A DNA stretch of 64,000 bases. Origin: Candidatus Multivorans sp. Its GTDB lineage: Bacteria; Acidobacteriota; Thermoanaerobaculia; Multivoradales; Multivoraceae. Positions 16,314-40,315 of this stretch are shown here, one piece after another. Every line of letters starts with the position of its first letter. The first letter of the stretch is position 1. A program made the position numbers and the translations under genes. The notes under the pieces were generated by a model that searched no databases, had not been told where the DNA came from, and worked only from the letters and a program-made list of their open reading frames with translations. The DNA is taken from NCBI GenBank assembly GCA_965208755.1, contig OZ242353.1, positions 4,974,714 through 5,038,713 on the forward strand, written 5' to 3'.

Positions 16314-18296
16314 TTGACCAGATCACAACGAAGACTCGCGACGTCGATGCTGATGCCGGCGTTGCTGGCCCTCGCTTCGGCCGCGGCCTGGGCGCAGCAC
16401 GGCGCCGGTGCCGGCGACTGGCCTTCCTACGGCGGCGACTATGGCAGCACGAAGTACACCGCGCTCGACCAGATCGACGGGGACAACGTCGCCGACCTCG
16501 AGGTGGCCTGGCGCTGGGAGTCCCCCGACAACACGGAAGCGGCAGACCGGGCCCGGTTCCTCAGGCCCGGGCCCTACAAGGTGACGCCGCTCATGGTCGG
16601 CGGCACGCTTTACGTGTCGACCTCCTTCGGCCAGGTGGCCGCGGTCGACGGGGCGACCGGCGAGCAGAAGTGGGTCTTCGACACGGAGGACTGGCGCACG
16701 AGTCGACCGACGAACCTCGGCTACAACCACCGGGGCGTCGGCTACTGGACCGACGGCGAGCAGGCGCGGATCCTGATGCCGACGAACCAGGCCTGGCTCT
16801 GGGCGATCGATGCCCATACCGGCGAGCCGGTCGGCGGCTTCGGCGAGGGAGGCAAGGTCGACCTTACCCAGGGTCTCGGGCGGCCGGTGCAGCGTCGCAT
16901 CTACTCGGTCATCTCCGCGCCGATGATCATCGGCGACACCGTGGTCGTCGGTTCTTCCATCTTCGACGGGCCGACACGCAAGGAGATGCCGCCCGGCCAC
17001 GTGCGCGGTTTCGACATCCGCACCGGGGAGCAGAAGTGGATCTTCCACACCATTCCCCAGGGCGACGAACCGGGCGTCGAGACCTGGGAAGACGAGTCCT
17101 GGACCTACAGCGGCAACACGAACGTCTGGTCGCTGATGAGCGGCGATGCGGAACTGGGCTACGTCTACCTGCCGACGGGTACGCCGACGAACGACTGGTA
17201 CGGCGGCCACCGCCTGGGAGACAACCTCTACGCCGAGAGCCTGGTCTGCCTCGACGCCGACACCGGTGAGAAGGTGTGGCACTTCCAGTTCGTGCACCAC
17301 GGGCTCTGGGACTATGACGTGCCGGCGGCGCCGAACCTGGTCGACATCACGGTCGACGGCAAGGAGATCAAGGCGGTCGCCCAGATCACGAAGCAGGGCT
17401 TCATCTACGTCTTCGACCGCGCGACCGGGGAGCATGTGTGGCCGATCGAGGAGCGGCCGGTGCCGCAGACGGACGTCCCCGGCGAGCGGACGTCGCCGAC
17501 CCAGCCGTTCCCGACCAGGCCGGCGCCCTACGAACACCAGGGCTTCGAGAGCGATGACATGCTCATTTCGTTCACTCCCGAACTCCACGAAGCGGCGAAG
17601 GCGATTCGCGACAAGTGGGTTGCCGGACCGCTGTTCACGCCGCCGTCGCTGCAGGGGACCCTGCTGCTGCCGGGCTGGGGCGGCGGCGCGAACTGGTACG
17701 GCGCCGCGGTCGATCCGGAGACAGCGACCATCTACATCCCGTCCTTCACCATGCCGATGGTGGTCAGGCTGGTCGAGCCGGACGGCGCCCGTTCGAACTT
17801 CCGCTACGTGCGCGGGATGAGCGGCATCGAGAGCCTCTTCCTGCAGGGTCCCGAGGGCCTGCCCCTGACCAGGCCGCCCTACGGCCGGATGACGGCGATC
17901 AATCTGAACACGGGCGAGCACGCCTGGATGAGACCGCTGGGCGATGGACCGCGGCAGCAGGTGATCGAGATGACAGGTGAGGATCCGGGTCCACTCGGCG
18001 GTCCGCCGGCGGCCGGGCCGCTGGTGACGAAGACGTTGCTCTTCCAGGCCCAGGGCGGCGCCCCGGGATTGACCGGCGGCCCTGGCGGCGGCGAGGTCTC
18101 CGTCCTCCGGGCGCACGACAAGAAAACCGGCGAGGTGATCCACGAGATCGAGCTCGACGCGTCCCCGAGCGGGACGCCGATGTCCTACGCGATCGGCGGG
18201 CGCCAGTACATCGCGCTCGCAGTCGGAGGAGCCGAGAGGGCCGAGGTCATCGCCCTGGCGTTGCCGGGGGCCGTTGCGGAGGAAGCCGGTCCATGA
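16314..18296 (+). CDS. PQQ-dependent dehydrogenase (quinoprotein alcohol/glucose dehydrogenase family)
   Basis: Signal peptide. Repeated W-containing PQQ beta-propeller motifs (…DNVADLEVAWRW…). 660 aa. Confidence 0.8.
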   Translation: MTRSQRRLATSMLMPALLALASAAAWAQHGAGAGDWPSYGGDYGSTKYTALDQIDGDNVADLEVAWRWESPDNTEAADRARFLRPGPYKVTPLMVGGTLYVSTSFGQVAAVDGATGEQKWVFDTEDWRTSRPTNLGYNHRGVGYWTDGEQARILMPTNQAWLWAIDAHTGEPVGGFGEGGKVDLTQGLGRPVQRRIYSVISAPMIIGDTVVVGSSIFDGPTRKEMPPGHVRGFDIRTGEQKWIFHTIPQGDEPGVETWEDESWTYSGNTNVWSLMSGDAELGYVYLPTGTPTNDWYGGHRLGDNLYAESLVCLDADTGEKVWHFQFVHHGLWDYDVPAAPNLVDITVDGKEIKAVAQITKQGFIYVFDRATGEHVWPIEERPVPQTDVPGERTSPTQPFPTRPAPYEHQGFESDDMLISFTPELHEAAKAIRDKWVAGPLFTPPSLQGTLLLPGWGGGANWYGAAVDPETATIYIPSFTMPMVVRLVEPDGARSNFRYVRGMSGIESLFLQGPEGLPLTRPPYGRMTAINLNTGEHAWMRPLGDGPRQQVIEMTGEDPGPLGGPPAAGPLVTKTLLFQAQGGAPGLTGGPGGGEVSVLRAHDKKTGEVIHEIELDASPSGTPMSYAIGGRQYIALAVGGAERAEVIALALPGAVAEEAGP

Positions 18297-19217: not shown

Positions 19218-19733
19218 TCAATCGCGGCTGGCGGAGGCGTTCGCCGATGGCCAGTCGCCCGCCTGGCAGGGGAAGGCCTGGATGTCGGCTTCGCCCAGCA
19301 GGGCTTCCTCGCCGTCGAATCGCTTCGACCGGTCCGTGGGCACATGCTTCACGGCGACTGTGAACGGTTGGTCGGTCGCCGTGCCGATGTAGACCCACCA
19401 GTGGCCGTTGTACCAGCAGCCGTTCAGCACCTTGATCAGAAGCTCCGGGTTCGTCGGGCTGTAGGCGAACATGAGCCCTGCCTCGTCGGTTCCCGGGAGC
19501 AGCACGCCCGTGGTCGGCACATCGCCCAGGTTGGCCCAGACGTTGAACTTTCCGCCCTGCAGGCAGAGTGGAGCGCGGCACTCTCCCGCGGTCACGGTCT
19601 CGCCGGCCAACGCCGGGGCGCGGGGCGCCTTGGCTCGGGCGCCCTCGCCGGCCGGAAGGGAATTCTGGGCCGCCGCGGGAAGCGCGGCGAGAACCAGGGC
19701 CGCGATACGGCTTCCTCGCATGAGTGTGTTCAT
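19218..19733 (-). CDS. Small secreted protein: a stand-alone, diverged copy of the C-terminal domain of the downstream tandem family
   Basis: Signal peptide (MNTLMRGSRIAALVLAALPAAAQ). Its body aligns to the array's C-domain: CLQGGKFNV…GVLLPGTDEAGLMFAYSPTNPELLIKVLNGCWYNGHWWVYIGTATDQPFTVAVKHV…EADIQAFPC versus CLRDSRFAVEVEW…VVHAGTNDSALFSFFDRANWEVLAKVLDGCAVNGSFWVFAASTTDLEFTIRVTD…DTEAFPGAC. Confidence 0.6.
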   Translation of the reverse strand: MNTLMRGSRIAALVLAALPAAAQNSLPAGEGARAKAPRAPALAGETVTAGECRAPLCLQGGKFNVWANLGDVPTTGVLLPGTDEAGLMFAYSPTNPELLIKVLNGCWYNGHWWVYIGTATDQPFTVAVKHVPTDRSKRFDGEEALLGEADIQAFPCQAGDWPSANASASRD

Positions 19734-19892
19734 CCGACTCCTCGCTGCTCTTGAACTGAACCTGGACAGGCCGGCGCCTTGAACTTCCCCCGGCTCCTTT
19801 CCGGGCGAGGCGCGGATACTATCGAGTACGCCATGTTCCCCGCCCCGGAACGGTTTGTTCGTCATCTTCGTGGCACGGTCGGGCCGGTCTCG

Positions 19893-21179
19893 ATGGCGCC
19901 GTTCTTCCTTGCGCTCGTTGCCGTTTCGGCGATGGGGCATGCCGCCGTTTCGGCGGCGGAATGCGAGAGCGCCTTCGCCCCGACGCCGCTGAGCGTGCCG
20001 GTGACATCGGTGCCCATCGTCGTCCCTTCGACGGCGGGAGACTACTTCGTTCTCTACGTGTCGCACGGGGAGCGGACTCTCCCCGTGTCAGTGACGCGGG
20101 GAAGGGAAGGCGCCACGCCGCTTGCGTGGCCGGTGGAGGGACTGCCGCCCGGACGGTACCGCGTGGAGAAGTACCCGATCTCCGAACCGGGGGACGTGGA
20201 CGGCGACTGCATCGATGATCTCACCGATCCCAACCCGGTGAACCCGGCTGGAGAGATCGCCTTCACGGACGGACTGACCTTGCTGTCGAGTTCCGCGCAG
20301 TGGCGGGCGATCGCTTTCGACGCGCTGCGCGACGGCTGCTCGATGTGCGAGGTCCCTGGCTCCGGAACGGACTGGCTGAAGCTCTCGGTGGACCGCCGGA
20401 ATCCGGTCCGGCCCGGCGTCTACTTCATCAACGCTCCGACCCATTGGGGCCACCCCCACTTCGCGTTCGCTTTGGGTCTGCCGCTGGATCTGATCTCTCT
20501 CGAACTCGACCGGGCCACCGGACTCCCCGGCTTCGCCCCCGACTCGACAACCTACTTCTTCTGGTTTTCCAACCCCGCGGACGCGCTGGATCTTGCCGGG
20601 ATGGTGCCGCTGCTTCACAGCGCGATCGGCGCCAGCATGCCGATCATGCGGGCGGAGGCCGCCGAATCGCGGCTTGCCTACTACGTTCCCGACACGGTCT
20701 GGAACAGAAGGTACTTCGAAGCGATCAGTCCCTGGCTTCCGAGCTACGAGGAGGCCGGGATCAGGGTTCTGGTCGATGGGTCCTTCGTCGACGATGCTCC
20801 CGAGGGCGCCTGCGAGAGCGACGAGACGAGGCGCTGCCTGCGGGATTCCCGTTTCGCGGTCGAGGTGGAGTGGACGGGTCCGGGCGGGACCGCCGGCGCC
20901 GCTCGGGTGGTCCACGCGGGCACGAACGACTCGGCGCTGTTCTCGTTCTTCGACCGGGCGAACTGGGAGGTTCTGGCGAAGGTTCTGGACGGTTGTGCGG
21001 TGAACGGGAGCTTCTGGGTGTTCGCGGCTTCGACGACGGACCTGGAGTTCACGATTCGGGTGACGGACACGGCGACCGGGGTTTCCCGCGCGTACTCGAA
21101 CGAGGCGGGCGCCGCCGCTCCCGCCGTCGCCGACACCGAGGCCTTCCCGGGCGCCTGCGGGAACGGCCGGGGCCGATGA
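19893..21179 (+). CDS. Array gene A. Secreted modular protein, shortest form: signal peptide + conserved N-domain + Cys-flanked C-domain; no linker or PKD.
   Basis: Start taken at MAPFFLALVAVSAMGHA; an upstream alternative exists at 19779. N-domain motifs YFVLYV, RYRVEKY, DVDGDCIDDLTDPNPVNP, INAPTHWGHP, LVPLLHSAI. C-domain CLRDSRFAVEVEW…AFPGACGNGRGR. Its stop overlaps the next ATG (ATGA). Confidence 0.7.
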   Translation: MAPFFLALVAVSAMGHAAVSAAECESAFAPTPLSVPVTSVPIVVPSTAGDYFVLYVSHGERTLPVSVTRGREGATPLAWPVEGLPPGRYRVEKYPISEPGDVDGDCIDDLTDPNPVNPAGEIAFTDGLTLLSSSAQWRAIAFDALRDGCSMCEVPGSGTDWLKLSVDRRNPVRPGVYFINAPTHWGHPHFAFALGLPLDLISLELDRATGLPGFAPDSTTYFFWFSNPADALDLAGMVPLLHSAIGASMPIMRAEAAESRLAYYVPDTVWNRRYFEAISPWLPSYEEAGIRVLVDGSFVDDAPEGACESDETRRCLRDSRFAVEVEWTGPGGTAGAARVVHAGTNDSALFSFFDRANWEVLAKVLDGCAVNGSFWVFAASTTDLEFTIRVTDTATGVSRAYSNEAGAAAPAVADTEAFPGACGNGRGR

Positions 21180-23359
21180 GAGGCGAACGGGCGGCGGGGT
21201 TGCGCGCGGGCCGGCTTCTCCCTTGGGCGCTGGCGACGGCGACGGCCGCCTTCGCCGCCGCCGGCGAGGGCCTGCGGGCGTCGGAATGCGAGGGCGACGG
21301 AACGACTCCGCCGACGCCGACCGCCGTCGCCGTGGAGTCCGTGCCCATCACGGTCCCTTCGACGGCGGCGGAGTACTTCGTGCTCTACGTGACCCACGAC
21401 CTGGGCGACGGCGATGTCCGCGAGGTTCCGGTGTCGGTGACCCGGGGGGAGGAGGGCGCGACGGCGCTCGAGTGGAACCTGTCCGGGCTTCCCGCGTCGA
21501 GGTACCGGGTCGAGAAGTACCGGATCGACGATCCGGGAGACGTGGACGGCGACTGCCGCGACGACCTGACGGACCCGAATCCGGTCAGCCCGGCCCGGGA
21601 GCTCGAATTCTCGGACGGCCTGAATCTGCTGTCGTCGTCCGAGCAGTGGGACGAGATCTACTTCGACGCCGTTCGCGACGGTTGCCCGGAGTGCGAGTTC
21701 TTTGGGCCGGGAACGCGGTACCTGAAGCTGCACGTCGCCCGCCCGGCCTCGCGGCCGCCGGCAATCTACGTCATCAACGCGCGGACCCACTGGGCGCACC
21801 CCATTTTCCGCAGTGCCGTGGGACTGCGAAGCGGCCTGTCGCTCGAGTTGGACAGGGAGACCGGGTTGGCCGGGACCGGGCCGGAGGTGGACACCTACTA
21901 CTGGTGGTTCTCGACCGGGGAGGATGCGGTCGAGTCCGCCGGTCTGGTGCCGTGGCTGCACAGCGCGGTCGCCGCCAGCCTTCCGATCATGCCGGCCGAG
22001 GCGTCGGAGTGGCGGCTTGCCTACTACATCCCGGACATCAAGTGGGACGAGCCGTTCGTCGAGGCGCTCCTGCCCCGGTTGGCCGGCTACGAGGGCGCGG
22101 GGGTTCCCGTTCTGCGCGACCGCTCGTTCAGGGCCGACCTGCCGAACATCTCGGTCTTGAGCGATCAGGAGTCCGTGACGGAGGGGCGGGACGCGACGTT
22201 CACGTTGACGGCGGATCCGCCGCCTCGGGAGGCCCTTGATGTCCTGTTGCAGGTTGTGGAGTCCAGCGGCAGCGACTTCCTGCACCCCGGTCGCAACCGG
22301 GGCTGCGTGGACATCCTGGGCCCCTCGGTCAACTCGGGCTACTGCTGGGTCAAGTTCGAGGCCGATGCCGCGTCCGCCGTCCTGACGATATCGATCGCGG
22401 ACGACGAGGTGAACGGTTCGGACGGTGTCGGGATCGTTTCCGTCGCGAAGTCGTCCGGCTACCTGCTTGGCATACCTCGTTCGGCGCGGGTCTCGGTGGT
22501 CGACAACGATGACGCTCCACCTCCTCCTCCGCCGCCGCCACCGCCGGAATCCGATCCACCGCCTCCTCCTCCTCCTCCTCCTACTACTCCTCCGCCTCCT
22601 ACTCCTCCGCCTCCTCCGGAATCCGATCCGCCGCCGCCCGCCGGTCCGCCGCCCGGGCCGCCGGCGCCCAATCCGGCGCCGGAACCCGAGCCTGAGCCCG
22701 AGCCCGAGCCGGCCGGTCCGCTGAAGGCGGACTTCACGGTGGACGCGGACTGCTCCTCGGATCCGTGCCGGCTGCGGACGGGCGTTCGCGTGGTGTTCTC
22801 GGATTCGAGCGGCGGCCGCGTCGTCGGCCGGCGCTGGAGCTTCGGGGACGGGTCGACGTCCCGCGGGCTGTCGCCGGCGCACGAGTACCGTTCGCCCGGC
22901 TTCTACGAGGTGTCGTTGACGGTGAGCGACGGGACGGAGGAATCGGTGGCGGCCCGCGTCTTCCTGGTGGAGGCCGGCGAGCCCGCCGGCGCCTGCGTGG
23001 GCGGCGCGTCCACCCGCTGCCTGCGGGATTCCCGGTTCGCGGTCGAGGTGGAGTGGACGGGTCCGGGCGGGGCCGCCGGCGCCGCTCGGGTGGTCCACGC
23101 CGGCACGAACGATTCGGCTCTGTTCTCGTTCTTCGACCGGGCGAACTGGGAGGTTCTGGCGAAGGTTCTGGACGGTTGTGCGGTGAACGGGAGCTTCTGG
23201 GTGTTCGCGGCTTCGACGACGGACCTGGAGTTCACGATCCGGGTGATCGACACGGTGACCGGGCGTTCTCGCGCGTACTCGAACGAGGCGGGCGCCGCTC
23301 CCGCCGTCGCCGACACCGAGGCCTTCCCGGGCGCCTGCGGGAACGGCCGGGGCCGATGA
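21176..23359 (+). CDS. Array gene B. Secreted modular protein: N-domain + ~125-aa insert (SDQESVTEGRDATFTLTADPPPREAL…VSVVDNDD) + Pro/PE linker + PKD + C-domain.
   Basis: Begins MRGERAAGLRAGRLLPWALATA (signal). Coupled ATGA junction at both ends. The ORF table extends the frame upstream to 20300, but the conserved start is at 21176. Confidence 0.75.
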   Translation: MRGERAAGLRAGRLLPWALATATAAFAAAGEGLRASECEGDGTTPPTPTAVAVESVPITVPSTAAEYFVLYVTHDLGDGDVREVPVSVTRGEEGATALEWNLSGLPASRYRVEKYRIDDPGDVDGDCRDDLTDPNPVSPARELEFSDGLNLLSSSEQWDEIYFDAVRDGCPECEFFGPGTRYLKLHVARPASRPPAIYVINARTHWAHPIFRSAVGLRSGLSLELDRETGLAGTGPEVDTYYWWFSTGEDAVESAGLVPWLHSAVAASLPIMPAEASEWRLAYYIPDIKWDEPFVEALLPRLAGYEGAGVPVLRDRSFRADLPNISVLSDQESVTEGRDATFTLTADPPPREALDVLLQVVESSGSDFLHPGRNRGCVDILGPSVNSGYCWVKFEADAASAVLTISIADDEVNGSDGVGIVSVAKSSGYLLGIPRSARVSVVDNDDAPPPPPPPPPPESDPPPPPPPPPTTPPPPTPPPPPESDPPPPAGPPPGPPAPNPAPEPEPEPEPEPAGPLKADFTVDADCSSDPCRLRTGVRVVFSDSSGGRVVGRRWSFGDGSTSRGLSPAHEYRSPGFYEVSLTVSDGTEESVAARVFLVEAGEPAGACVGGASTRCLRDSRFAVEVEWTGPGGAAGAARVVHAGTNDSALFSFFDRANWEVLAKVLDGCAVNGSFWVFAASTTDLEFTIRVIDTVTGRSRAYSNEAGAAPAVADTEAFPGACGNGRGR
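22516..22716 (+). repeat. Low-complexity coding repeat in gene B: poly-Pro / ESDPPPP / (PE)n linker. Analogous tracts lie near 25275-25466, 27723-27918, 30181-30425, 32355-32500, 34475-34585, 37120-37320, 39300-39545 and 40745-40830.
   Basis: The ccgcc/cctcc and gagccc/gaaccc triplet repeats are read directly in the sequence. Lengths differ between paralogs. Confidence 0.85.
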
Positions 23360-26112
23360 GAGGCGAACGGGCGGCGGGGTTTCGCGCGGGCCGGCTTCTC
23401 CCTTCGGCGCTGGCGGCGGCGACGGCGATGGCCTTCGCCTCCGCCGGCGTGGGCCTGCGGGCGTCGGAGTGCGAGGACGACGAAACGACTCCGCCGACGC
23501 CGACCGCCGTCGCCGTGGAGTCCGTGCCCGTCACGGTCGCTTCGACGGCGGCGGACTACTTCGTGCTCTACGTGAAGAACGACGTGGGCAACGGCGTTGT
23601 ACGCGAGGTTCCGGTTTCGGTGACCCGGGGAGAGGAGGGCGCGACGACGCTCGAGTGGAACCTGTCCGGGCTTCCCGCGTCGAGATACCGGGTGGAGAAG
23701 TACGGGATCGACGATCCGGGAGACGTGGACGGGGACTGCCGGGACGACCTGGCGGACCCGAATCCGGTGAATCCGGCCCGGGAGCTCGAACTCAGCGACG
23801 GCCTGAATCTGCTGTCGACGTCCGAGCAGTGGAACGCGCTGTACTTCGACACCGTTCGTGACGGTTGCCCGGAGTGCGAGTTCTTCGGGCCGGGAACGCG
23901 GTACCTCAAGCTGCACGTGGCCCGCCCGGCCTCGCGGCCGCCGGCAATCTACGTCATCAACGCGCGGACCCATTGGGCGCACTTCGAGTTCCGCGTTGCC
24001 TTGGGGCTCAAGAGGGACCTGTCGCTCGAGTTGGACAGGGAGACCGGGTTGACCGGGACCGGGCCGGAGGTGGACACCTACTACTGGTGGTTCTCTGATG
24101 CCAAGGATGCGGTCGCCTCCGCCGGTCTGGTGCCGTGGCTGCACGGCGCGATCGCCGCCAACCTTCCGATCATGCCGGCCGAGGCGTCGGAGTGGCGGCT
24201 TGCCTACTACATTCCGGACAGGACGTGGAGGAAGCGCTACATCGATCGGATAACGCCCCGGATAGCCGGTTACGAGCAGGCCGGGGTGCCGGTTTTGCGC
24301 GACGAGTCGTGGGTCGTCGACGTTTCCCTCGAGATGGAGACGGCCGTCGTGGACGAAGGCGGTACGGCGTCTCTTCTGGCGCGGTTGGCGAAGCCGCTGT
24401 CTTCCTCGGTCACCGTGCCGCTGATCGTGGTGGGGGCGGGGACGGCGAACGCCGTGCCCGCTAGCGTCAGGATCAGCGCCGGGATGACGGAGGCGTCGAC
24501 GAGCTTCGCGACGGCGGTCGACGGGGACACGGAGGACGAGATCGTGACCATCGGTTTCGGCGACCTTCCCTGGCAGGTCTCGCCCGGCAGCCCCGCCAGC
24601 GTGACCCTGGCGGTCAGGGACCTGACGCCGGCGGCGACGCTGGCGGTGAAGACCGACTCCTTGGAGGAGGGTTCGTCGACCGAAGTCGAGGTGCTTCTGA
24701 CCAGGGCCTGGACGAGTCCGCTCCTGATTCCCCTGACGACGTCCGGCACGGTGGAGAGCGGCGATTTCACGGTGCCGGCGAGCGTGACGATCGCGGCGGG
24801 GCGGAAGTCGGGAACCGCCGCCGTTTCCGCGGCGCGCGATGCGGACGCGGATGACGAGACGCTGACGGTGTCGCTGGGGACGCTGCCGGAGGAGGTCGCG
24901 CGCGCTTCGCCGGCCGCGGTCGACATCGTGATCCGCGACAGGAATACGGAGGTCACCCTGTCGGCGGCGCCTTCGACGGTGGAGGAGGGTGAGAGCGCGA
25001 CCGTCACCGCGAGCCTGAGCCGGGCGCGGTCCACCGCCGTGGCGATCCCGCTGCTCGTGAACGACGTGGACGCCGAGCCGGGCGACTACGCGGCGCCGTC
25101 GTTCATCGAAGTTGCGCCGAACGCCGTGACGGGCGCCGCGGCCCTTCTGACCGTGGATGACGGGGACCTGGACGACGAGACCTTCACCGTGTCGCTGGGC
25201 GCCGACCTGCCCGAGGGCATGGTCGCCGGCACGCCGGACGCCGTACTCGTGACCATCCGGGACGACGATTCGGCGCCTCCTCCCCCTCCGGAATCCGATC
25301 CGCCGCCGCCGCCACCTCCACCTCCGCCCGCCGATCCTCCTCCGCCCGCCGGCCCGGCGCCGCCGGAGTCCGATCCGCCGCCGCCCGCGCCTCCGCCCGC
25401 CGGCCCGCCGCCTGCTCCTCCCGAATCCGATCCGGCGCCCGAGCCGGAACCCGAGCCCGAACCGGCGGGTCCGCTGAAGGCTGACTTCACGGTGGACGCG
25501 GACTGCTCCTCGGCGCCGTGCCGGCTGCGGACGGGCGTTCGCGTGGTGTTCTCGGATTCGAGCGGCGGCCGCGTCGTCGGCCGGCGCTGGAGCTTCGGGG
25601 ACGGGTCGACGTCCCGCGGGCTGTCGCCGGCGCACGAGTACCGTTCGCCCGGCTTCTACGAGGTGTCGTTGACGGTGAGCGACGGGACGGAGGAATCGGT
25701 GGCGACTCGCGTCTTCCTGGTGGAGGCCGGCGAGCCCGCCGGCGCCTGCGTGGGCGGCGCGTCCGTCCGCTGCCTGCGGGATTCCCGGTTCGCGGTCGAG
25801 GTGGAGTGGACGGGTCCGGGCGGGGCCGCCGGCGCCGCTCGGGTGGTCCACGCCGGCACGAACGATTCGGCTCTGTTCTCGTTCTTCGACCGGGCGAACT
25901 GGGAGGTTCTGGCGAAGGTTCTGGACGGTTGTGCGGTGAACGGGAGCTTCTGGGTGTTCGCGGCTTCGACGACGGACCTGGAGTTCACGATCCGGGTGAC
26001 GGACACGGCGACCGGGGTTTCCCGCGCGTACTCGAACGAGGCGGGCGCCGCTCCCGCCGTCGCCGACGCGGAGGCGTTTCCGGGCGCCTGCGGGCGCCGC
26101 CGGGGCCGATGA
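23356..26112 (+). CDS. Array gene C. Long form: N-domain + 4 Calx-beta-like repeats + Pro/PE linker + PKD + C-domain.
   Basis: Conserved MRGERAAGFRAGRLLP start at the ATGA junction. Calx-beta-like segments end in …VTLAVRDL, …VDIVIRD and …VLVTIRDDD. Confidence 0.75.
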   Translation: MRGERAAGFRAGRLLPSALAAATAMAFASAGVGLRASECEDDETTPPTPTAVAVESVPVTVASTAADYFVLYVKNDVGNGVVREVPVSVTRGEEGATTLEWNLSGLPASRYRVEKYGIDDPGDVDGDCRDDLADPNPVNPARELELSDGLNLLSTSEQWNALYFDTVRDGCPECEFFGPGTRYLKLHVARPASRPPAIYVINARTHWAHFEFRVALGLKRDLSLELDRETGLTGTGPEVDTYYWWFSDAKDAVASAGLVPWLHGAIAANLPIMPAEASEWRLAYYIPDRTWRKRYIDRITPRIAGYEQAGVPVLRDESWVVDVSLEMETAVVDEGGTASLLARLAKPLSSSVTVPLIVVGAGTANAVPASVRISAGMTEASTSFATAVDGDTEDEIVTIGFGDLPWQVSPGSPASVTLAVRDLTPAATLAVKTDSLEEGSSTEVEVLLTRAWTSPLLIPLTTSGTVESGDFTVPASVTIAAGRKSGTAAVSAARDADADDETLTVSLGTLPEEVARASPAAVDIVIRDRNTEVTLSAAPSTVEEGESATVTASLSRARSTAVAIPLLVNDVDAEPGDYAAPSFIEVAPNAVTGAAALLTVDDGDLDDETFTVSLGADLPEGMVAGTPDAVLVTIRDDDSAPPPPPESDPPPPPPPPPPADPPPPAGPAPPESDPPPPAPPPAGPPPAPPESDPAPEPEPEPEPAGPLKADFTVDADCSSAPCRLRTGVRVVFSDSSGGRVVGRRWSFGDGSTSRGLSPAHEYRSPGFYEVSLTVSDGTEESVATRVFLVEAGEPAGACVGGASVRCLRDSRFAVEVEWTGPGGAAGAARVVHAGTNDSALFSFFDRANWEVLAKVLDGCAVNGSFWVFAASTTDLEFTIRVTDTATGVSRAYSNEAGAAPAVADAEAFPGACGRRRGR

Positions 26113-28565
26113 GAGGCGAACGGGCGGCCGGGTTGGGCGGGGGCCGGCTTCTCCCTTCGGCGCTGGCGGCGGCGGCGATGGCGGCCGCCACCGCCGGCGT
26201 GGGCCTGCGGGCGTCGGAGTGCGAGGACGACGGAACGACTCCTCCGACTCCGGTGGCCGTCGCCGTGGAGTCCGTGCCCATCACGGTCCCTTCGACGGCG
26301 GCGGAGTACTTCGTGCTCTACGTGACCCACGACCTGGGCGACGGCGATGTCCGCGAGGTTCCGGTTTCGGTGACCCGGGGGGAGGAGGGCGCGACGGCGC
26401 TCGAGTGGAACCTGTCCGGGCTTCCCGCGTCGCGATACCGGGTGGAGAAGTACCGGATCGACGATCCGGGAGACGTGGACGGCGACTGCCGCGACGACCT
26501 GACGGACCCGAATCCGGTCAATCCGGCCCGGGAGATCGAACTCGCGGACGGTCTGAATCTGCTGTCGACGTCCGAGCAGTGGAACGAAATCTACTTCGAC
26601 ACCGTTCGCGATCGTTGCCCGGGTTGCTTCTTCCACGGGCCCGGAACGAGATATCTCAAGTTGCACGGCGACCGCTCGGCCGCGCAGCCCCCGGCAACCT
26701 ACTTCATCAACGCGTCGACCCACTGGGCGCACGCTTTCTTCCGTGTCGCCGTTGGGCTGGAACGCGACTTGTCGCTCGGTCTCGACAGGGAGACCGGGTT
26801 GGGCGACACCGGGTCGGAGTTGGACACCTACTTCTGGTGGTTCACATGGTCCTCGGACGCGGTCGAGTACGCTCATCTGGTGCCCTGGCTGCACAGCGCG
26901 ATCGCCGCCAGCCTTCCGATCATGCCGGCCGATGCGTCCGAGTGGCGGCTTGCCTACTATGTCCCCGACAGGAAGTGGAACAAGAGCGACATCGACCAGA
27001 TCGCGGCCCGGATACCCGGTTACGAGCAGGCGGGGGTGCCGGTTCTGCGCGATGAGGCGTGGGTCGTCGACGTTTCCCTCGAGATGGAGACGGCCATCGT
27101 GGACGAAGGCGGTACGGCGTCCTTCCTGACGCGGCTCGCGAAGCCGCTGTCTTCCTCGGTCACCGTGCCGCTGATCGTGGTGGGGGCGGGGACGGCGAAC
27201 GCCGTGCCCGCTAGCGTCAGGATCAGCGCCGGGATGACGGAGGCGTCGACGAGCTTCGCGACGGCGGTGCACGCGGACGCGGAGGATGAAATCGTGACCA
27301 TCGCTTTCGGCGAGCTTCCCTGGCAGGTCTCGCCCGGCAGCCCCGCCAGCGTGACCTTGACGGTCAGGGACCTGACGCCGATCGGGGAAGCGACTCAGGA
27401 GGTCACCCTGTCGGTGGCGCCTTCGACGGTGGAGGAGGGCGCGGGCGCGACCGTCACCGCGAGCCTGAGCCGGGCGCGATTCACCGCGGTGGCGATTCCG
27501 CTGCTCGTGACCGACGTGGACGCCGAGCCGGGCGACTACGCGGCGCCGTCGTTCATCGAAGTTGCGCCGGACGCCGTGACGGGCGCCGCGGCCCTTCTGA
27601 CCGTGGATGACGGGGACCTGGACGACGAGACCTTCACCGTGTCGCTGGGCGCCGACCTGCCCGAGGGCATGGTCGCCGGCACGCCGGACGCCGTACTCGT
27701 GACCATCCGGGACGACGATTCGGCGCCTCCTCCCCCTCCGGAATCCGATCCGCCGCCGCCGCCACCTCCACCTCCGCCCGCCGATCCTCCTCCGCCCGCC
27801 GGCCCGGCGCCGCCGGAGTCCGATCCGCCGCCGCCCGCGCCTCCGCCCGCCGGCCCGCCGCCTGCTCCTCCCGAATCCGATCCGGCGCCCGAGCCGGAAC
27901 CCGAGCCCGAGCCGGCGGGTCCGCTGAAGGCGGACTTCACGGTGGACGCGGACTGCTCCTCGGCGCCGTGCCGGCTGCGGACGGGCGTTCGCGTGGTGTT
28001 CTCGGATTCGAGCGGCGGCCGCGTCGTCGGCCGGCGCTGGAGCTTCGGGGACGGGTCGACGTCCCGCGGGCTGTCGCCGGCGCACGAGTACCGTTCGCCC
28101 GGCTTCTACGAGGTGTCGTTGACGGTGAGCGACGGGACGGAGGAATCGGTGGCGGCCCGGGTCTTCCTGGTGGAGGCCGGCGAGCCCGCCGGCGCCTGCG
28201 TGGGCGGCGCGTCCACCCGCTGCCTGCGGGATTCCCGGTTCGCGGTCGAGGTGGAGTGGACGGGTCCGGGCGGGGCCGCCGGCGCCGCCCGGGTGGTCCA
28301 CGCCGGCACGAACGATTCGGCTCTGTTCTCGTTCTTCGACCGGGCGAACTGGGAGGTTCTGGCGAAGGTTCTGGACGGTTGTGCGGTGAACGGGAGCTTC
28401 TGGGTGTTCGCGGCTTCGACGACGGACCTGGAGTTCACGATCCGGGTGACGGACACGGCGACCGGGGTTTCCCGCGCGTACTCGAACGAGGCGGGCGCCG
28501 CCGCTCCCGCCGTCACCGACACGGAGGCGTTCCCGGGCGCCTGCGGGCGCCGCCGGGGCCGATGA
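26109..28565 (+). CDS. Array gene D. Long form with Calx-beta-like repeats, Pro/PE linker, PKD and C-domain.
   Basis: Same architecture and same ATGA junctions. The N-domain loop is CPGCFFHGPG, where B and C have CPECEFFGPG. Confidence 0.75.
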   Translation: MRGERAAGLGGGRLLPSALAAAAMAAATAGVGLRASECEDDGTTPPTPVAVAVESVPITVPSTAAEYFVLYVTHDLGDGDVREVPVSVTRGEEGATALEWNLSGLPASRYRVEKYRIDDPGDVDGDCRDDLTDPNPVNPAREIELADGLNLLSTSEQWNEIYFDTVRDRCPGCFFHGPGTRYLKLHGDRSAAQPPATYFINASTHWAHAFFRVAVGLERDLSLGLDRETGLGDTGSELDTYFWWFTWSSDAVEYAHLVPWLHSAIAASLPIMPADASEWRLAYYVPDRKWNKSDIDQIAARIPGYEQAGVPVLRDEAWVVDVSLEMETAIVDEGGTASFLTRLAKPLSSSVTVPLIVVGAGTANAVPASVRISAGMTEASTSFATAVHADAEDEIVTIAFGELPWQVSPGSPASVTLTVRDLTPIGEATQEVTLSVAPSTVEEGAGATVTASLSRARFTAVAIPLLVTDVDAEPGDYAAPSFIEVAPDAVTGAAALLTVDDGDLDDETFTVSLGADLPEGMVAGTPDAVLVTIRDDDSAPPPPPESDPPPPPPPPPPADPPPPAGPAPPESDPPPPAPPPAGPPPAPPESDPAPEPEPEPEPAGPLKADFTVDADCSSAPCRLRTGVRVVFSDSSGGRVVGRRWSFGDGSTSRGLSPAHEYRSPGFYEVSLTVSDGTEESVAARVFLVEAGEPAGACVGGASTRCLRDSRFAVEVEWTGPGGAAGAARVVHAGTNDSALFSFFDRANWEVLAKVLDGCAVNGSFWVFAASTTDLEFTIRVTDTATGVSRAYSNEAGAAAPAVTDTEAFPGACGRRRGR

Positions 28566-31072
28566 GAGACGAACGGGCGGTTGGGTTTCGCGCCGGCGGG
28601 CTTCTTCCTTCGGCGCTGGCGGCGGCGACGGCGATGGCCTTCGCCTCCGCCGGCGTGGGCCTGCGGGCGTCGGAGTGCGAGGACGACGAAACGACTCCGC
28701 CGACGCCGACCGCCGTCGCCGTGGAGTCCGTGCCCATCACGGTCCCTTCGACGGCGGCGGAGTACTTCGTGCTCTACGTGACCCACGACCTGGGCGACGG
28801 CGATGTCCGCGAGGTTCCGGTGTCGGTGACCCGGGGGGAGGAGGGCGCGACGACGCTCGAGTGGAACCTGTCCGGGCTTCCCGCGTCGAGGTACCGGGTC
28901 GAGAAGTACCGGATCGACGATCCGGGAGACGTGGACGGCGACTGCCGCGACGACCTGACGGACCCGAATCCGGTCAACCCGGCCCGGGAGATCGAACTCG
29001 TGAACGGTCTGAATCTGCTGTCGACGTTTGAGCAGTGGGACGAGCTCTACTTCGACACCGTTCGCGATCGTTGCTCGGAGTGCTTCTTTCACGGGCCCGG
29101 AACGAGATATCTCAAGCTGTTCGGCAATCGCTCGGGCTCGCGGCCGCCGGCAATCTACTTCATCAACGCGCCGACCCACTGGGGGCACCCTGCCTTTCGG
29201 ACCAGAATGAAACTGCAGGCCGGCTGGAACCTGGAGCTGGACAGGGAAACCGGGTTGGGCGACACAGGGCCGGAGGTGGACACCTACTACTGGTGGTTCT
29301 CCTTCCCACAGTACGCGGACGAGTACGCCCATCTGGTGCCCTGGCTGCACAGCGCGATCGCCGCCAACCTGCCGATCATGCGGGCGGATGCGTCCGAATG
29401 GCGGCTTGCCTACTACATCCCCGACAAGACGTGGGATTGGTACAACCTCGACCCGATCACGTCCCGGATAGCCGGTTACGAGCAGGCGGGGGTGCCGGTT
29501 CTGCGCGATGAGGCGTGGGTCGTCGACGTTTCCCTCGAGATGGAGACCGCCATCGTGGACGAAGGCGGTACGGCGTCTCTTCTGACGCGGTTGGCGAAGC
29601 CGCTGTCTTCCTCGGTCACCGTGCCGCTGCTTGTGGCGGGGCGGGACACGTCGACCGCGGTGCCCGCGAGCGTCGAGATCGCCGCCGGAAGCACGGAGGC
29701 GTCGACAAGCTTCTCGACGGCGGTCGACGGGGACACGGAGGACGAGATCGTGACCATCGGTTTCGGCGAGCTTCCCTGGCAGGTCTCGCCCGGCAGCGCC
29801 GCCAGCGTGACCTTGACGGTCAGGGACCTGACACCGATCGGGGAAGCGACTCAGGAGGTCACCCTGTCGGTGGCGCCTTCGACGGTGGAGGAGGGTGCGG
29901 GCGCGACCGTTACCGCGAGCCTGAGCCGGGCGCGATCCACCGCGGTGACGATCCCGCTGCTCGTGAACGACGTGGACGCCGAACCGGGCGACTACACGGC
30001 GCCGTCGTTCATCGGAGTAGCGCGGGGCGCCGTGACGGGCGCGGCGGCCCTTCAGGCCGTGGATGACGGCGACCTGGACGACGAGACCCTCACCGTGTCG
30101 CTGGGCGCCGCCCTGCCCGAGGGCATGGTCGCCGGGACGCCGGACGCCGTACTCGTGACCATCCGGGACGACGATTCGGCGCCTCCTCCTCCGGAATCCG
30201 ATCCTCCTCCTCCTCCTCCTCCTCCTCCTCCTCCTCCTCCTCCGCCGCCGCCCACGCCGCCGGAATCCGATCCTCCGCCTCCTCCTCCTCCGCCCACGCC
30301 GCCGCCCTCGGGTCCGCCGCCCGCGCCGCCGGCGCCCGATCCGGCGCCTGAACCCGAGCCTGAGCCCGCGCCCGAGCCCGAGCCGGAACCCGAGCCTGAA
30401 CCCGAGCCCGAGCCGGCGCCGGCCGGTCCGCTGAAGGCGGACTTCACGGTGGACGCGGACTGCTCCTCGGCGCCGTGCCGGCTGCGGACGGGCGTTCGCG
30501 TGGTGTTCTCGGATTCGAGCGGCGGCCGCGTCGTCGGCCGGCGCTGGAGCTTCGGGGACGGGTCGACGTCCCGCGGGCTGTCGCCGGCGCACGAGTACCG
30601 TTCGCCCGGCTTCTACGAGGTGTCGTTGACGGTGAGCGACGGGACGGAGGAATCGGTGGCGGCCCGGGTCTTCCTGGTGGAGGCGGGGGAGCCCGCGGGC
30701 GCCTGCGTGGGCGGCGCGTCCGTCCGCTGTCTGCGGGATTCCCGTTTCGCGGTCGAGGTGGAGTGGACGGGTCCGGGCGGGGCCGCCGGCGCCGCTCGGG
30801 TGGTCCACGCGGGCACGAACGACTCGGCGCTGTTCTCGTTCTTCGACCGGGCGAACTGGGAGGTTCTGGCGAAGGTTCTGGACGGTTGTGCGGTGAACGG
30901 GAGCTTCTGGGTGTTCGCGGCTTCGACGACGGACCTGGAGTTCACGATTCGGGTGACGGACACGGCGACCGGGGTTTCCCGCGCGTACTCGAACGAGGCG
31001 GGCGCCGCCGCTCCCGCCGTCGCCGACACCGAGGCCTTCCCGGGCGCCTGCGGGAACGGCCGGGGCCGATGA
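28562..31072 (+). CDS. Array gene E. Long form carrying the longest Pro/(PEPA)n linker.
   Basis: Starts MRDERAVGFRAGGLLP. The linker (PPPPPPPPPPPPPPPPPTPPESDPPPPPPPPTPPPSGPPPAPPAPDPAPEPEPEPAPEPEPEPEPEPEPEPAPAGP) is followed by the PKD and C-domains. Confidence 0.75.
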   Translation: MRDERAVGFRAGGLLPSALAAATAMAFASAGVGLRASECEDDETTPPTPTAVAVESVPITVPSTAAEYFVLYVTHDLGDGDVREVPVSVTRGEEGATTLEWNLSGLPASRYRVEKYRIDDPGDVDGDCRDDLTDPNPVNPAREIELVNGLNLLSTFEQWDELYFDTVRDRCSECFFHGPGTRYLKLFGNRSGSRPPAIYFINAPTHWGHPAFRTRMKLQAGWNLELDRETGLGDTGPEVDTYYWWFSFPQYADEYAHLVPWLHSAIAANLPIMRADASEWRLAYYIPDKTWDWYNLDPITSRIAGYEQAGVPVLRDEAWVVDVSLEMETAIVDEGGTASLLTRLAKPLSSSVTVPLLVAGRDTSTAVPASVEIAAGSTEASTSFSTAVDGDTEDEIVTIGFGELPWQVSPGSAASVTLTVRDLTPIGEATQEVTLSVAPSTVEEGAGATVTASLSRARSTAVTIPLLVNDVDAEPGDYTAPSFIGVARGAVTGAAALQAVDDGDLDDETLTVSLGAALPEGMVAGTPDAVLVTIRDDDSAPPPPESDPPPPPPPPPPPPPPPPPTPPESDPPPPPPPPTPPPSGPPPAPPAPDPAPEPEPEPAPEPEPEPEPEPEPEPAPAGPLKADFTVDADCSSAPCRLRTGVRVVFSDSSGGRVVGRRWSFGDGSTSRGLSPAHEYRSPGFYEVSLTVSDGTEESVAARVFLVEAGEPAGACVGGASVRCLRDSRFAVEVEWTGPGGAAGAARVVHAGTNDSALFSFFDRANWEVLAKVLDGCAVNGSFWVFAASTTDLEFTIRVTDTATGVSRAYSNEAGAAAPAVADTEAFPGACGNGRGR

Positions 31073-33144
31073 GAGGCGAACGGGCGGCGGGGTTGCGCGC
31101 GGGCCGGCTTCTCCCTTGGGCGCTGGCGACGGCGATTGCCTTGGCCGCCGCCGCCGGCGATCTGTGGGCGTCGGAATGCGAGGACGACGGAACGACTCCG
31201 CCGACGCCGACCGCCGTCGCCGTGGAGTCCGTGCCCATCACGGTCCCTTCGACGGCGGCGGAGTACTTCGTGCTCTACGTGACCCACGACCTGGGCGACG
31301 GCGATGTCCGCGAGGTTCCGGTGTCGGTGACCCGGGGGGAGGAGGGCGCGACGACGCTCGAGTGGAACCTGTCCGGGCTTCCCGCGTCGCGATACCGGGT
31401 GGAGAAGTACGAGGTCGACGATCCGGGAGACGTGGACGGCGACTGCCGCGACGACCTGACGGACCCGAATCCGGTCAATCCGGCCCGGGAGCTCGAATTC
31501 TCGGACGGTCTGAATCTGCTGTCGACGTCCGAGCAGTGGGACGAGATCTACTTCGACACCGTTCGCGATCGTTGCGGGGCGTGCGAGTTCTTCGGGCCGG
31601 GAACGCGATACCTGAAGCTGCACGTTTCCCGCTCGGACTCGAAGCCGCCGCAGATCTACGTCATCAACTCGCGGACACACTGGGGGCATCCCTGGTTCCG
31701 CAACGCCGTGGGGCTGGAAAAGGACCTGCCGATCGAGTTGGACCGGGGCGCCGGGGTGGGCGACACCGGGTCGGAGGTGGAGACCTACTACTGGTGGTTC
31801 TCCGATGCCAAGGATGCGGTCGCCTCCGCCGGTCTGGTGCCCTGGCTGCACAGTGCGATCGCGGCCAGCCTTCCGATCATGCCGGCCGAGTCCGAGGAGT
31901 GGCGGCTCGCCTACTACATTCCGGACACCAAGTGGGATGCGCCGGCTGTCGAGGCGCTCCCGCCCTGGATTGCCGGCTACGAGGGCGCGGGGGTCCCCGT
32001 TCTGCGCGACCGCTCGTTCGCCCCCGACGCGCCCATCGTCTCGGTCTCGAGCGACCAGGAAACCGTGACGGAGGGGCAGGACGCAAGTTTCACGTTCACG
32101 GCGGATCGGTTTGCCCAGGAGGCCTTTGCGGTCGGATTCAGCGTCGTCGAGAGACCGCGGTTCGCCGGCACCCGGAGGGCAGGAGAAGTCAGGTTCGAGG
32201 CTGGCGCCGCGTCCGCCGTCCTGACGTTGCCGACCGAAGACGACGGCGTGGCCGGAAGAGAGCGTGTGGCGATCGTCCACCTCGAGACGGGGGCCGGCTA
32301 TCTGCCCGGTCCGCGGCGCTCGGCGCGGGTCACGGTGGTCGACAACGATGACGCCTCTCCTCCTCCGCCGCCGCCCTCCGATCCTCCTCCTCCTTCGCCT
32401 CCTCCTCCTTCGCCTCCTCCTCCTTCGCCTCCGCCGCCCGCGCCTCCGGCGCCCGATCCGGCGCCGGAACCCGAGCCCGAACCCGAGCCCGAGCCGGCGG
32501 GTCCGCTGAAGGCGGACTTCACGGTGGACGCGGACTGCTCCTCGGCGCCGTGCCGGCTGCGGACGGGCGTTCGCGTGGTGTTCTCGGATTCGAGCGGCGG
32601 CCGCGTCGTCGGCCGGCGCTGGAGCTTCGGGGACGGGTCGACGTCCCGCGGGCTGTCGCCGGCGCACGAGTACCGTTCGCCCGGCTTCTACGAGGTGTCG
32701 TTGACGGTGAGCGACGGGACGGAGGAATCGGTGGCGACTCGCGTCTTCCTGGTGGAGGCCGGCGAGCCCGCCGGCGCCTGCGTGGGCGGCGCGTCCGTCC
32801 GCTGCCTGCGGGATTCCCGGTTCGCGGTCGAGGTGGAGTGGACGGGTCCGGGCGGGGCCGCCGGCGCCGCCCGGGTGGTCCACGCCGGCACGAACGATTC
32901 GGCTCTGTTCTCGTTCTTCGACCGGGCGAACTGGGAGGTTCTGGCGAAGGTTCTGGACGGTTGTGCGGTGAACGGGAGCTTCTGGGTGTTCGCGGCTTCG
33001 ACGACGGACCTGGAGTTCACGATCCGGGTGACGGACACGGCGACCGGGGTTTCCCGCGCGTACTCGAACGAGGCGGGCGCCGCCGCCGCCGTCGCCGACA
33101 CGGAGGCGTTCCCGGGCGTCTGCGGGAACGGCCGGGGCCGATGA
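31069..33144 (+). CDS. Array gene F. Medium form: N-domain + one insert domain + Pro/PE linker + PKD + C-domain.
   Basis: Conserved start and junctions. The insert domain is a diverged variant (SDQETVTEGQDASFTFTADRFAQEAF…). Confidence 0.75.
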   Translation: MRGERAAGLRAGRLLPWALATAIALAAAAGDLWASECEDDGTTPPTPTAVAVESVPITVPSTAAEYFVLYVTHDLGDGDVREVPVSVTRGEEGATTLEWNLSGLPASRYRVEKYEVDDPGDVDGDCRDDLTDPNPVNPARELEFSDGLNLLSTSEQWDEIYFDTVRDRCGACEFFGPGTRYLKLHVSRSDSKPPQIYVINSRTHWGHPWFRNAVGLEKDLPIELDRGAGVGDTGSEVETYYWWFSDAKDAVASAGLVPWLHSAIAASLPIMPAESEEWRLAYYIPDTKWDAPAVEALPPWIAGYEGAGVPVLRDRSFAPDAPIVSVSSDQETVTEGQDASFTFTADRFAQEAFAVGFSVVERPRFAGTRRAGEVRFEAGAASAVLTLPTEDDGVAGRERVAIVHLETGAGYLPGPRRSARVTVVDNDDASPPPPPPSDPPPPSPPPPSPPPPSPPPPAPPAPDPAPEPEPEPEPEPAGPLKADFTVDADCSSAPCRLRTGVRVVFSDSSGGRVVGRRWSFGDGSTSRGLSPAHEYRSPGFYEVSLTVSDGTEESVATRVFLVEAGEPAGACVGGASVRCLRDSRFAVEVEWTGPGGAAGAARVVHAGTNDSALFSFFDRANWEVLAKVLDGCAVNGSFWVFAASTTDLEFTIRVTDTATGVSRAYSNEAGAAAAVADTEAFPGVCGNGRGR

Positions 33145-40209: not shown

Positions 40210-40315
40210 CGGGAGCGCGATGGAGCGCGGGCAGTGTAAGATGCGGCCGGGAGAGAGCCCTCGGGCGGATGGCGCCGTGCAGATCGTTGATGACAGTTCT
40301 TTCGGCCGCCAGGAC

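Follow-up and report, generated by a model that had tools for sequence, protein, structure and literature searches.

Tandem arrays of secreted or surface paralogues, built by unequal crossing-over and gene conversion, are known from several bacteria, among them the lpl and ssl arrays of Staphylococcus aureus and the vsp/vlp arrays of mycoplasmas. Here we analyzed a tandem array of genes for apparently secreted proteins in a 64,000-nucleotide (nt) stretch of Candidatus Multivorans sp. (assembly GCA_965208755.1, contig OZ242353.1, positions 4,974,714 to 5,038,713 of the forward strand; this whole stretch is called the window below), in which the start codon of each of eight successive genes overlaps the stop codon of the preceding gene within the tetranucleotide ATGA. 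Co-directional overlaps make up about 15% of gene pairs in most prokaryotic groups, the 4-nt class being the commonest, and in most bacterial groups an intragenic Shine-Dalgarno (SD) sequence precedes the restart codon in 50-70% of overlapping pairs (PMC6728339). Studies in E. coli and H. volcanii have shown that termination-reinitiation couples ATGA pairs (PMC6728339; PMC10666635), and most of the ATGA pairs tested were coupled (PMC6728339). When the SD was removed in E. coli, reinitiation fell by 60-100% in four out of five pairs; the SD was essential in one of the five and important in three (PMC6728339). For the window, we consider it probable that the eight junctions are copies of one ancestral gene boundary and that reinitiation contributes to translation along what is probably a single transcript; within this explanation we infer the recombination history, the single transcript and the coupling, while the sequence anatomy, the edges of the array, the mosaic make-up of its units, the lack of the junction at a syntenic locus and the weak SD are shown.

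Eleven plus-strand genes, numbered 0 to 10, lie in one run and share a C-terminal domain of about 125 amino acids (aa), hereafter the C domain. Genes 1-8 encode a signal peptide, an N domain, one to three Calx/LapA-like middle modules, a Pro-rich and PE-repeat linker, a PKD domain and the C domain. The 24-mer GGCCGATGAGAGGCGAACGGGCGG, which spans the junction, had eight plus-strand matches, at 21171, 23351, 26104, 28557, 31064, 33136, 35223 and 37958. Six of these were exact, the copy at 28557 had one mismatch and that at 33136 had two; out of 100 dinucleotide-preserving shuffles, none contained a match. The sequence-only reading had named eight positions at which an ATG overlaps the preceding TGA, and the motif search together with a check of the open reading frames (ORFs) confirmed every one of them. 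Each of genes 1-8 was an uninterrupted ORF. The array and its genes are as follows.

20840 to 40165, plus strand: extent of the array, consisting of the gene 0 C-domain block and eight units of 2072-2753 nt
19833 to 21179, plus strand: gene 0 (448 aa), with a signal-peptide-like N-terminus, a diverged N domain (about 285 aa) and a C domain, without linker or PKD domain
21176 to 23359, plus strand: array gene 1 (727 aa), ATGA at 21176-21179; PKD_4 match of 51.9 bits
23356 to 26112, plus strand: array gene 2 (918 aa), with three middle modules, ATGA at 23356-23359
26109 to 28565, plus strand: array gene 3 (818 aa), ATGA at 26109-26112; identical to public protein P0072
28562 to 31072, plus strand: array gene 4 (836 aa), ATGA at 28562-28565, motif with one mismatch
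31069 to 33144, plus strand: array gene 5 (691 aa), ATGA at 31069-31072; identical to P0003
33141 to 35231, plus strand: array gene 6 (696 aa), ATGA at 33141-33144, motif with two mismatches; identical to P0004
35228 to 37966, plus strand: array gene 7 (912 aa), ATGA at 35228-35231
37963 to 40209, plus strand: array gene 8, the last (748 aa), ATGA at 37963-37966; ends in the tail ACAVRRNQALGQGAGP, with no ATGA at its stop codon

Gene 0, which is identical to public protein P0001, ends in GNGRGR inside the first ATGA, and genes 1-7 each stop at the TGA of the following ATGA, so that the co-directional genes overlap by 4 nt at all eight junctions and there are no intergenic bases between genes 0 and 8. 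The start-to-start distances of genes 1-8 were all 2 mod 3, as a 4-nt overlap requires. The junctions had been described earlier as lying in an identical context. This held for the ATGA itself, which is common to all eight, but only approximately for its surroundings: the upstream tail was GNGRGR at six junctions and GRRRGR at two, the downstream N-terminus was MRGERAAG in five genes and MRDERAVG, MRNERAAG and MRGERAVG in one each, and 26 of the 124 columns from -60 to +64 around the junction ATG were variable, the other 98 being invariant.

Several observations indicate that both overlapping ORFs are real genes and that the junction ATG is probably the real start. In this window of about 70% GC, the GC content at third codon positions was 0.82-0.83 in the plus-strand frames that carry coding signal. 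The PKD_4 matches in genes 1, 2 and 9 scored 50-52 bits against a Pfam gathering cut-off of 27, and homologues occur in other genomes. Public gene calls for the source contig (5,074,318 bp) used the same starts as ours for gene 0 and for genes 1, 2, 3, 5 and 6; the exact 748-aa product of gene 8 was absent from the public collection, and its called start may differ. From the junction ATG onward there is a signal-peptide-like sequence, which could be aligned to the N-terminal ends of genes 0 and 9, both free-standing. We assigned signal peptides by eye, from a basic n-region, an Ala/Leu-rich core and an A-x-A-like site.

We then compared the eight junctions by mean pairwise identity over 900 nt upstream and 1100 nt downstream of the ATG. 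They sit in a block from about -550 to +500 with a mean pairwise identity of 0.80-1.00, in which the junction forms no peak. Identity was 0.93-1.00 from -350 to -100, 0.91-0.93 within about 50 nt on either side of the ATG, 0.69 from +47 to +97 (the signal-peptide core) and 0.93-0.97 from +150 to +450. With 79% of nearby columns invariant, the probability that four given columns are all invariant was about 0.39. The junction was not better conserved than its flanks, and there was no detectable extra constraint on it. The ATGA is under a double constraint in any case, because no base of it can be substituted without loss of a start or a stop codon, and an indel would disrupt a reading frame. The identity of the junctions points to recent common descent or homogenization.

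At the left end of the array, unit homology began at about 20840, at the start of the gene 0 C domain, and the part of gene 0 upstream of this point gave no alignment with the PKD region of the units. On the right it ended at 40163-40165, immediately past the final Cys codon in gene 8, where the internal copies have GCCTG followed by CGGG and gene 8 has GCCTG followed by TGCC. Past this edge the internal copies read GCCTGCGGGAACGGCCGGGGCCGATGA, whereas gene 8 reads GCCTGTGCCGTTCGG..., stops 45 nt further on and gives way to a spacer; its tail (GCCTGTGCC...) resembles the end of gene 9, unlike the internal tails. Because the left edge lies in the C domain of gene 0 and the right edge follows the last Cys of gene 8, the array can be read as one C domain from gene 0 followed by eight units, each running ATGA, signal peptide, N domain, middle modules, linker, PKD domain and C domain.

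The units were also mosaic, with the nearest neighbor of a given unit changing from segment to segment. In the signal-peptide region the closest pairs were genes 6 and 7 (0.985) and genes 2 and 4 (0.956), in the N domain from nt 136 to 500 they were genes 5 and 6 and genes 2 and 7, and from nt 501 to 1000 they were genes 6 and 8 and genes 4 and 7. Two types of middle module are intermixed, their sequence over the eight units being A B B B A A B A. Nucleotide identity between units was 96-99% in the PKD and C blocks and 69-91% in the second part of the N domain, and the synonymous difference (pS) ranged along the gene from 0.02 to 0.45. This mosaicism indicates ongoing exchange between the units. 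Unequal crossing-over of a unit that includes the junction, as the sequence-only reading had proposed, was supported by the edges in homologous C-domain sequence, by the mosaic units and by a relative with two plus one genes (described below). The substrate of recombination was most likely the C domain and later the PKD and C block, with the junction carried along as a passenger from one ancestral gene pair.

Two variable segments of the unit deserve mention. The linkers differ in length through CCN and CCCGAG-type microsatellites; the repeats (CCN, CCCGAG and 12-51-nt tandem repeats) were located at 22562-22617, 25274-25412, 27724-27862, 30202-30422, 32352-32447, 37111-37314, 39309-39536 and 40754-40824, and their copy number varies by unit, which makes slippage in them a likely cause of length variation. 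The N domain in its second half (nt 501-1000 of the unit, for example 21676-22175) was far more diverged than the rest; diversifying selection acting on a surface patch could account for this, as could an older origin not reached by homogenization. A crude pN/pS (nonsynonymous to synonymous difference) exceeded 1 in several 15-codon windows, at codons 16-30, 61-75 and 286-300. We dropped a claim of diversifying selection based on these windows, as the method is too rough and the copies are too recombinant.

Taken together, the history we propose would run as follows. Gene 0 and an adjacent paralogue X, the ancestor of genes 1-8, would already have overlapped by ATGA, both ending in the same C domain and X having a different tail. 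Unequal crossing-over between the 3' coding blocks, at first the C domain and later PKD plus C, would have duplicated the unit repeatedly, each new copy taking the gene 0 tail (GNGRGR and the ATGA) and the last copy alone retaining the end of X. Later gene conversion would have held the 3' block and the junction at 91-100% identity. Divergence or shuffling would meanwhile have changed the core of the signal peptide, the latter half of the N domain, the middle modules and the microsatellite-like linkers. From then on, the ordinary double constraint of start and stop would have kept the ATGA.

The remaining features of the gene run and its upstream neighbor are listed here.

19218 to 19733, minus strand: small gene (about 171 aa) with a signal peptide and a diverged stand-alone C domain; its translation contains MNTLMRGSRIAALVLAALPAAAQ
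19734 to 19832, no strand: divergent intergenic region of 99 nt, the sole non-coding DNA upstream of the array and, by its position, the presumed site of the promoter for gene 0 and those that follow it
40210 to 40315, no strand: spacer of 106 nt between genes 8 and 9, the sole non-overlapping junction of the gene run
40316 to 41470, plus strand: gene 9 (384 aa when counted from ATG 40316), with a signal peptide, one Calx-like module, a Pro/PE linker, a PKD domain and a C domain
41457 to 44144, plus strand: gene 10 (up to 895 aa), with a signal peptide, an N domain, a PPDK_N ATP-grasp-type domain and a C domain

Gene 9 is a more diverged paralogue without an N domain (PKD_4 51.8 bits); its start is uncertain, its exact product being absent from the public collection. 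Gene 10 begins either at GTG 41457, overlapping gene 9 by 14 nt, or at TTG 41487, and is 43% identical to gene 0 in the N domain and 57% in the C domain.

A syntenic locus, L002 (Ca. Multivorans sp. CBDCRA010000005.1, 1-15611), comes from a distant relative whose flanking proteins are 72-93% identical to those of the window: carboxylesterase 83%, M20 peptidase 72%, the gene 10 orthologue 77% and PQQ dehydrogenase 93%, with the small C-domain protein at 57%. L002 carries two genes of the N...PKD-C type plus the gene 10 orthologue, compared with 10+1 in the window. All three family genes there stop at TAG and are followed by a non-coding spacer, with no ATGA, and the ATG at 12051 is preceded by a GGGAG Shine-Dalgarno sequence. 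With two plus one genes, TAG stops and spacers in L002, the eightfold array and its ATGA junction appear specific to the lineage of the window, and expression of the family evidently does not require the overlap. Gene order was rearranged as well, PQQ dehydrogenase lying downstream of the gene 10 orthologue in L002 and upstream of the array in the window, and the 15.6 kb of L002 showed no FAA hydrolase.

The second genome with such overlaps was OZ242040.1 (Candidatus Multivorans sp.), in which we found at least seven ATGA junctions between genes for protease-like proteins of about 1450 aa with PKD and C domains. They lie in arrays at loci L004-L009 (about 2.06-2.16 Mb) and L005 (4.35 Mb), and fall into three diverged junction and signal-peptide variants, MKSRAGDG.., MIEGDGRS.. 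and MKVRARYG.., all with ATGA. The terminal genes have differing tails, and decayed junction remnants (ATGA and a 44-codon ORF, MIEGRRPVPRGEF...) remain at the array ends. No ATGA was seen at the other C-domain gene ends examined, outside amplified arrays. With two genomes examined, the recurrence of ATGA in the second is suggestive. Searching JGI metagenome contigs for exact copies of the motif at the junction returned one match (L022), inside an unrelated lower-GC gene, which we dismissed as chance.

Turning to expression, we scanned 19200-45000 for sigma-70 consensus promoters and for terminators, a consensus approach that is crude for Acidobacteriota, and found no plus-strand promoter-like site in this region and no terminator-like site at the junctions. 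One weak terminator-like stem of 5 bp was present at 28587, within the signal-peptide coding part of gene 4. A single transcript of genes 0-8 is likely, and it would probably start in the 99-nt divergent region upstream of gene 0. The gene 0 ATG itself has TACTAT 12 nt upstream and no SD (19800-19835), and a very short leader or a leaderless transcript can be entertained as speculation.

At all eight junctions stop and restart codon stood at -4 nt, the close spacing expected of termination-reinitiation (PMC10666635). The only SD at any of them was GGGG at -7 to -4, with a duplex of -5.0 kcal/mol to the anti-SD, so that the junctions lacked an intragenic SD of the kind that is usual in bacteria, though not strictly defining. 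Duplexes at the uncoupled starts of genes 0 and 9 were -3.3 and -4.0 kcal/mol. Stronger SDs, of -8.5 to -11.2 kcal/mol, were found for PQQ dehydrogenase, for FAA hydrolase (in an ATGA overlap at 18293, with GGAGGAAG) and at two other starts. The window holds at least two and probably three other 4-nt overlaps, namely an ATGA at 18293-18296, which is this PQQ dehydrogenase/FAA hydrolase pair with its strong GGAGGAAG SD, a GTGA at 56861-56864 on the minus strand and a GTGA at about 4718-4721 on the minus strand. The RNA within 60 nt on either side of the junctions folded at -58 to -70 kcal/mol per 120 nt. At the five junctions compared with shuffled controls over this span there was no structure beyond that of the controls (z of -0.19 to +2.02), and a dedicated coupling hairpin was ruled out, as folding was no stronger than in shuffled sequence.

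Because the junction ATG has a weak SD in strongly folding, GC-rich RNA, we propose that reinitiation probably contributes substantially at each junction: ribosomes that finish at the TGA would begin again at the ATG that overlaps it, accounting for a substantial part of downstream initiation, and some de novo initiation would probably take place at the downstream genes too. Translational coupling along the array is plausible. The earlier suggestion that the coupling is obligate was, however, unsupported, because genes 0 and 9 lack a good SD and yet cannot be coupled, because an SD-poor context could equally mean weak reinitiation, and because eight strictly serial restarts would strongly attenuate the distal genes.

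Several points weigh against the explanation as a whole. Only one assembly is known to contain the array, few well-defined starts went into the SD comparison, and weak SDs may simply be a habit of this secreted-protein family. Since removal of the SD lowers reinitiation (PMC6728339), a weak SD argues equally for low expression. A different history is also possible, in which a single gene was duplicated and gene 0 was then the target of gene conversion, but it is less parsimonious, requiring an extra later change in the gene 8 tail. We can picture, too, that the overlap is no more than compact spacing and that every gene has de novo initiation of its own, independent of translation upstream, whether by way of the weak GGGG, by SD-independent binding of the 30S subunit or from promoters within the preceding coding sequence; this is a real possibility, although we would not bet on it. 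Genes 0 and 9 are uncoupled and have equally poor SDs, the overlapping bioBF pair of E. coli starts de novo (PMC6728339), and distal genes would be expressed little after eight reinitiations in series, each short of full efficiency. Set against this are the lack of a plus-strand promoter-like site within 20 kb, the strong folding of the RNA at the start codon, which disfavors free 30S binding, and the coupling of most tested ATGA pairs (PMC6728339). If programmed frameshifting or readthrough at the junction fused the units into a polyprotein, this would suit the -1 difference between successive gene frames and the frames that stay open far ahead of each ATG. At 70% GC, though, such open frames are usual, and direct reading found no slippery heptamer at GGGGCCGATGA and no X XXY YYZ motif in GGGGCCGATGAGAGG. 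With no unusual RNA structure at the junctions (z of about -0.2 to +2.0) and a signal-peptide-like sequence of its own at the start of each unit, we give the polyprotein next to no credence.

The arrangement might instead owe its persistence to selection. If ATGA were actively selected for coupling, for example to fix the stoichiometry of the paralogues, both its conservation and its recurrence would be explained, and it is indeed kept in the three diverged junction variants of OZ242040.1, where the tail after the last Cys is 2 aa rather than 6, and found only in amplified arrays, not at the other C-domain gene ends examined. The window junction is no better conserved than its flanks, however, any overlap is frozen by the need for start and stop so that retention calls for no extra selection, L002 functions with spacers, and only two genomes were examined; we hold this explanation to be unlikely. 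We also doubt a more elaborate proposal, a translational relay with a de novo start at gene 0 alone and eight SD-poor handovers giving graded output, in which the homogenized block shuffles modules and the arrangement is selected as such. If this improbable relay were true, one message would yield a fixed, graded output of eight variant secreted proteins, the block of PKD, C domain and junction would double as a recombination substrate that shuffles N domains and middle modules, and the recurrence of ATGA in the independently amplified OZ242040.1 arrays would reflect selection and not chance. Finally, the array or its copy number could be an artefact, the result of misassembly of repeat-rich sequence in a metagenome-assembled genome (MAG), given that the proteins are known from one contig only and that blocks of about 1 kb are common to the units at 96-100% identity. 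The units differ, however, in length (2072-2753 nt), in middle-module type, in linker repeats and by many substitutions, with all ORFs intact; the 5.07-Mb contig suggests a long-read assembly; and a comparable array exists in the independent genome OZ242040.1. An artefact is therefore very unlikely. We return to copying of one ancestral boundary, with reinitiation contributing, as the probable explanation.

The proteins themselves were only partly recognizable. PKD domains (Pfam PF18911/PF00801) gave the only matches among PDB sequences (collagenase ColH/ColG PKD domains, E 4e-9), and the middle modules matched the LapA model marginally, at 29.5 against a threshold of 27. The N and C domains had no match in Pfam (E up to 10), NCBIfam (E up to 0.1) or PDB sequences, and a Foldseek search of the PDB with the AlphaFold2 model of gene 0 (pLDDT 87) gave no hit with E below 0.1. 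The relatives found were MAGs of Candidatus Multivorans, Multivoraceae, other Thermoanaerobaculia and Holophagales, which agrees with a probable origin of the window in a Thermoanaerobaculia-like member of the Acidobacteriota. A literature search on Ca. Multivorans yielded nothing specific, and Rfam at gathering thresholds found no RNA family anywhere in the window.

The C domain (22967-23356 in gene 1) is marked by the motif ...C-x6-8-RCL-x-[DN]SRFAVEVEW...DSALFSFFD..NWEVL.KVLDGC..N..FWVFAA.TTDLEFTI.VTDT... and returned 9,404 cluster representatives in phmmer at E<=1e-3 and 2,125 at E<=1e-30. It often occurs in 2-4 copies per protein and lies mostly at the C-terminus, behind varied passengers such as M10 peptidase, FN3, PKD and Tricorn-like domains. 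It appears to be an abundant uncharacterized module, possibly with a binding or anchoring role. The small gene upstream of the array gave tblastn matches at the C-domain positions of related loci, in addition to its 57%-identical counterpart in L002. The N domain (about 285 aa; 21296-22150 in gene 1) is present in genes 0-8 and 10 and has the conserved motifs DVDGDC.DDL.DPNPVN, which resembles a calcium site, and INA.TH..H. Its fusion to PPDK_N in gene 10 recurs in the database proteins P0027, P0028, P0046 and P0047; a domain like those of PEP-utilizing enzymes is an odd component of an apparently secreted protein. The unannotated N domain and the very widespread C domain (about 9,400 cluster representatives) are the more promising leads from this locus.

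Compared with the known tandem arrays of secreted or surface paralogues, the array in the window has the same head-to-tail units, identical boundaries, edges in homologous sequence, mosaic copies and mixture of variable and conserved segments, and, to judge from a distant relative (L002), its copy number may likewise differ between related genomes. Unlike in those arrays, the units are joined without a spacer, the N and C domains of this unannotated family have no Pfam or NCBIfam match, an uncultured Thermoanaerobaculia-like bacterium is the host, and we saw no sign of phase-variable or one-at-a-time expression. The OZ242040.1 arrays are closer still: they too have a low-complexity linker followed by PKD and C domains (about 60% identity in the C domain), then ATGA and a signal peptide, with near-identical internal junctions and differing tails on the terminal genes. 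Their passenger, of about 1100 aa, is different, carrying repeated Ig-like modules and the serine-protease-like motif GGSSGSP, their linker is Gly-rich where that of the window is Pro-rich, 2 aa follow the last Cys instead of 6, and the arrays are shorter, with 2-3 genes per run.

With the known ATGA overlapping pairs (Huber et al. 2019, PMC6728339; PMC10666635; review PMC12548453) the junctions share their geometry, co-directional genes and absence of intergenic DNA. Those pairs typically have a single junction between different genes, often subunits of one complex (PMC10666635), whereas here one junction is repeated eight times in series between paralogues, the intragenic SD is weak and the coupling is inferred from sequence. 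ATGA overlaps are already known from a large share of prokaryotic operons, and tandem arrays are known to carry their unit boundary along; the array in the window is a recently amplified gene array with an ordinary, common type of overlap and not a new mechanism. It is less common for one SD-poor overlap to recur in series between paralogues, and for the ancestral ends of an array to be preserved so cleanly. Because these outer ends are still visible, the locus offers a clean, fully resolved case of one stop/start overlap multiplied by unequal crossing-over, and a natural series of eight SD-poor restart sites with which the compounding of reinitiation efficiency could be measured.

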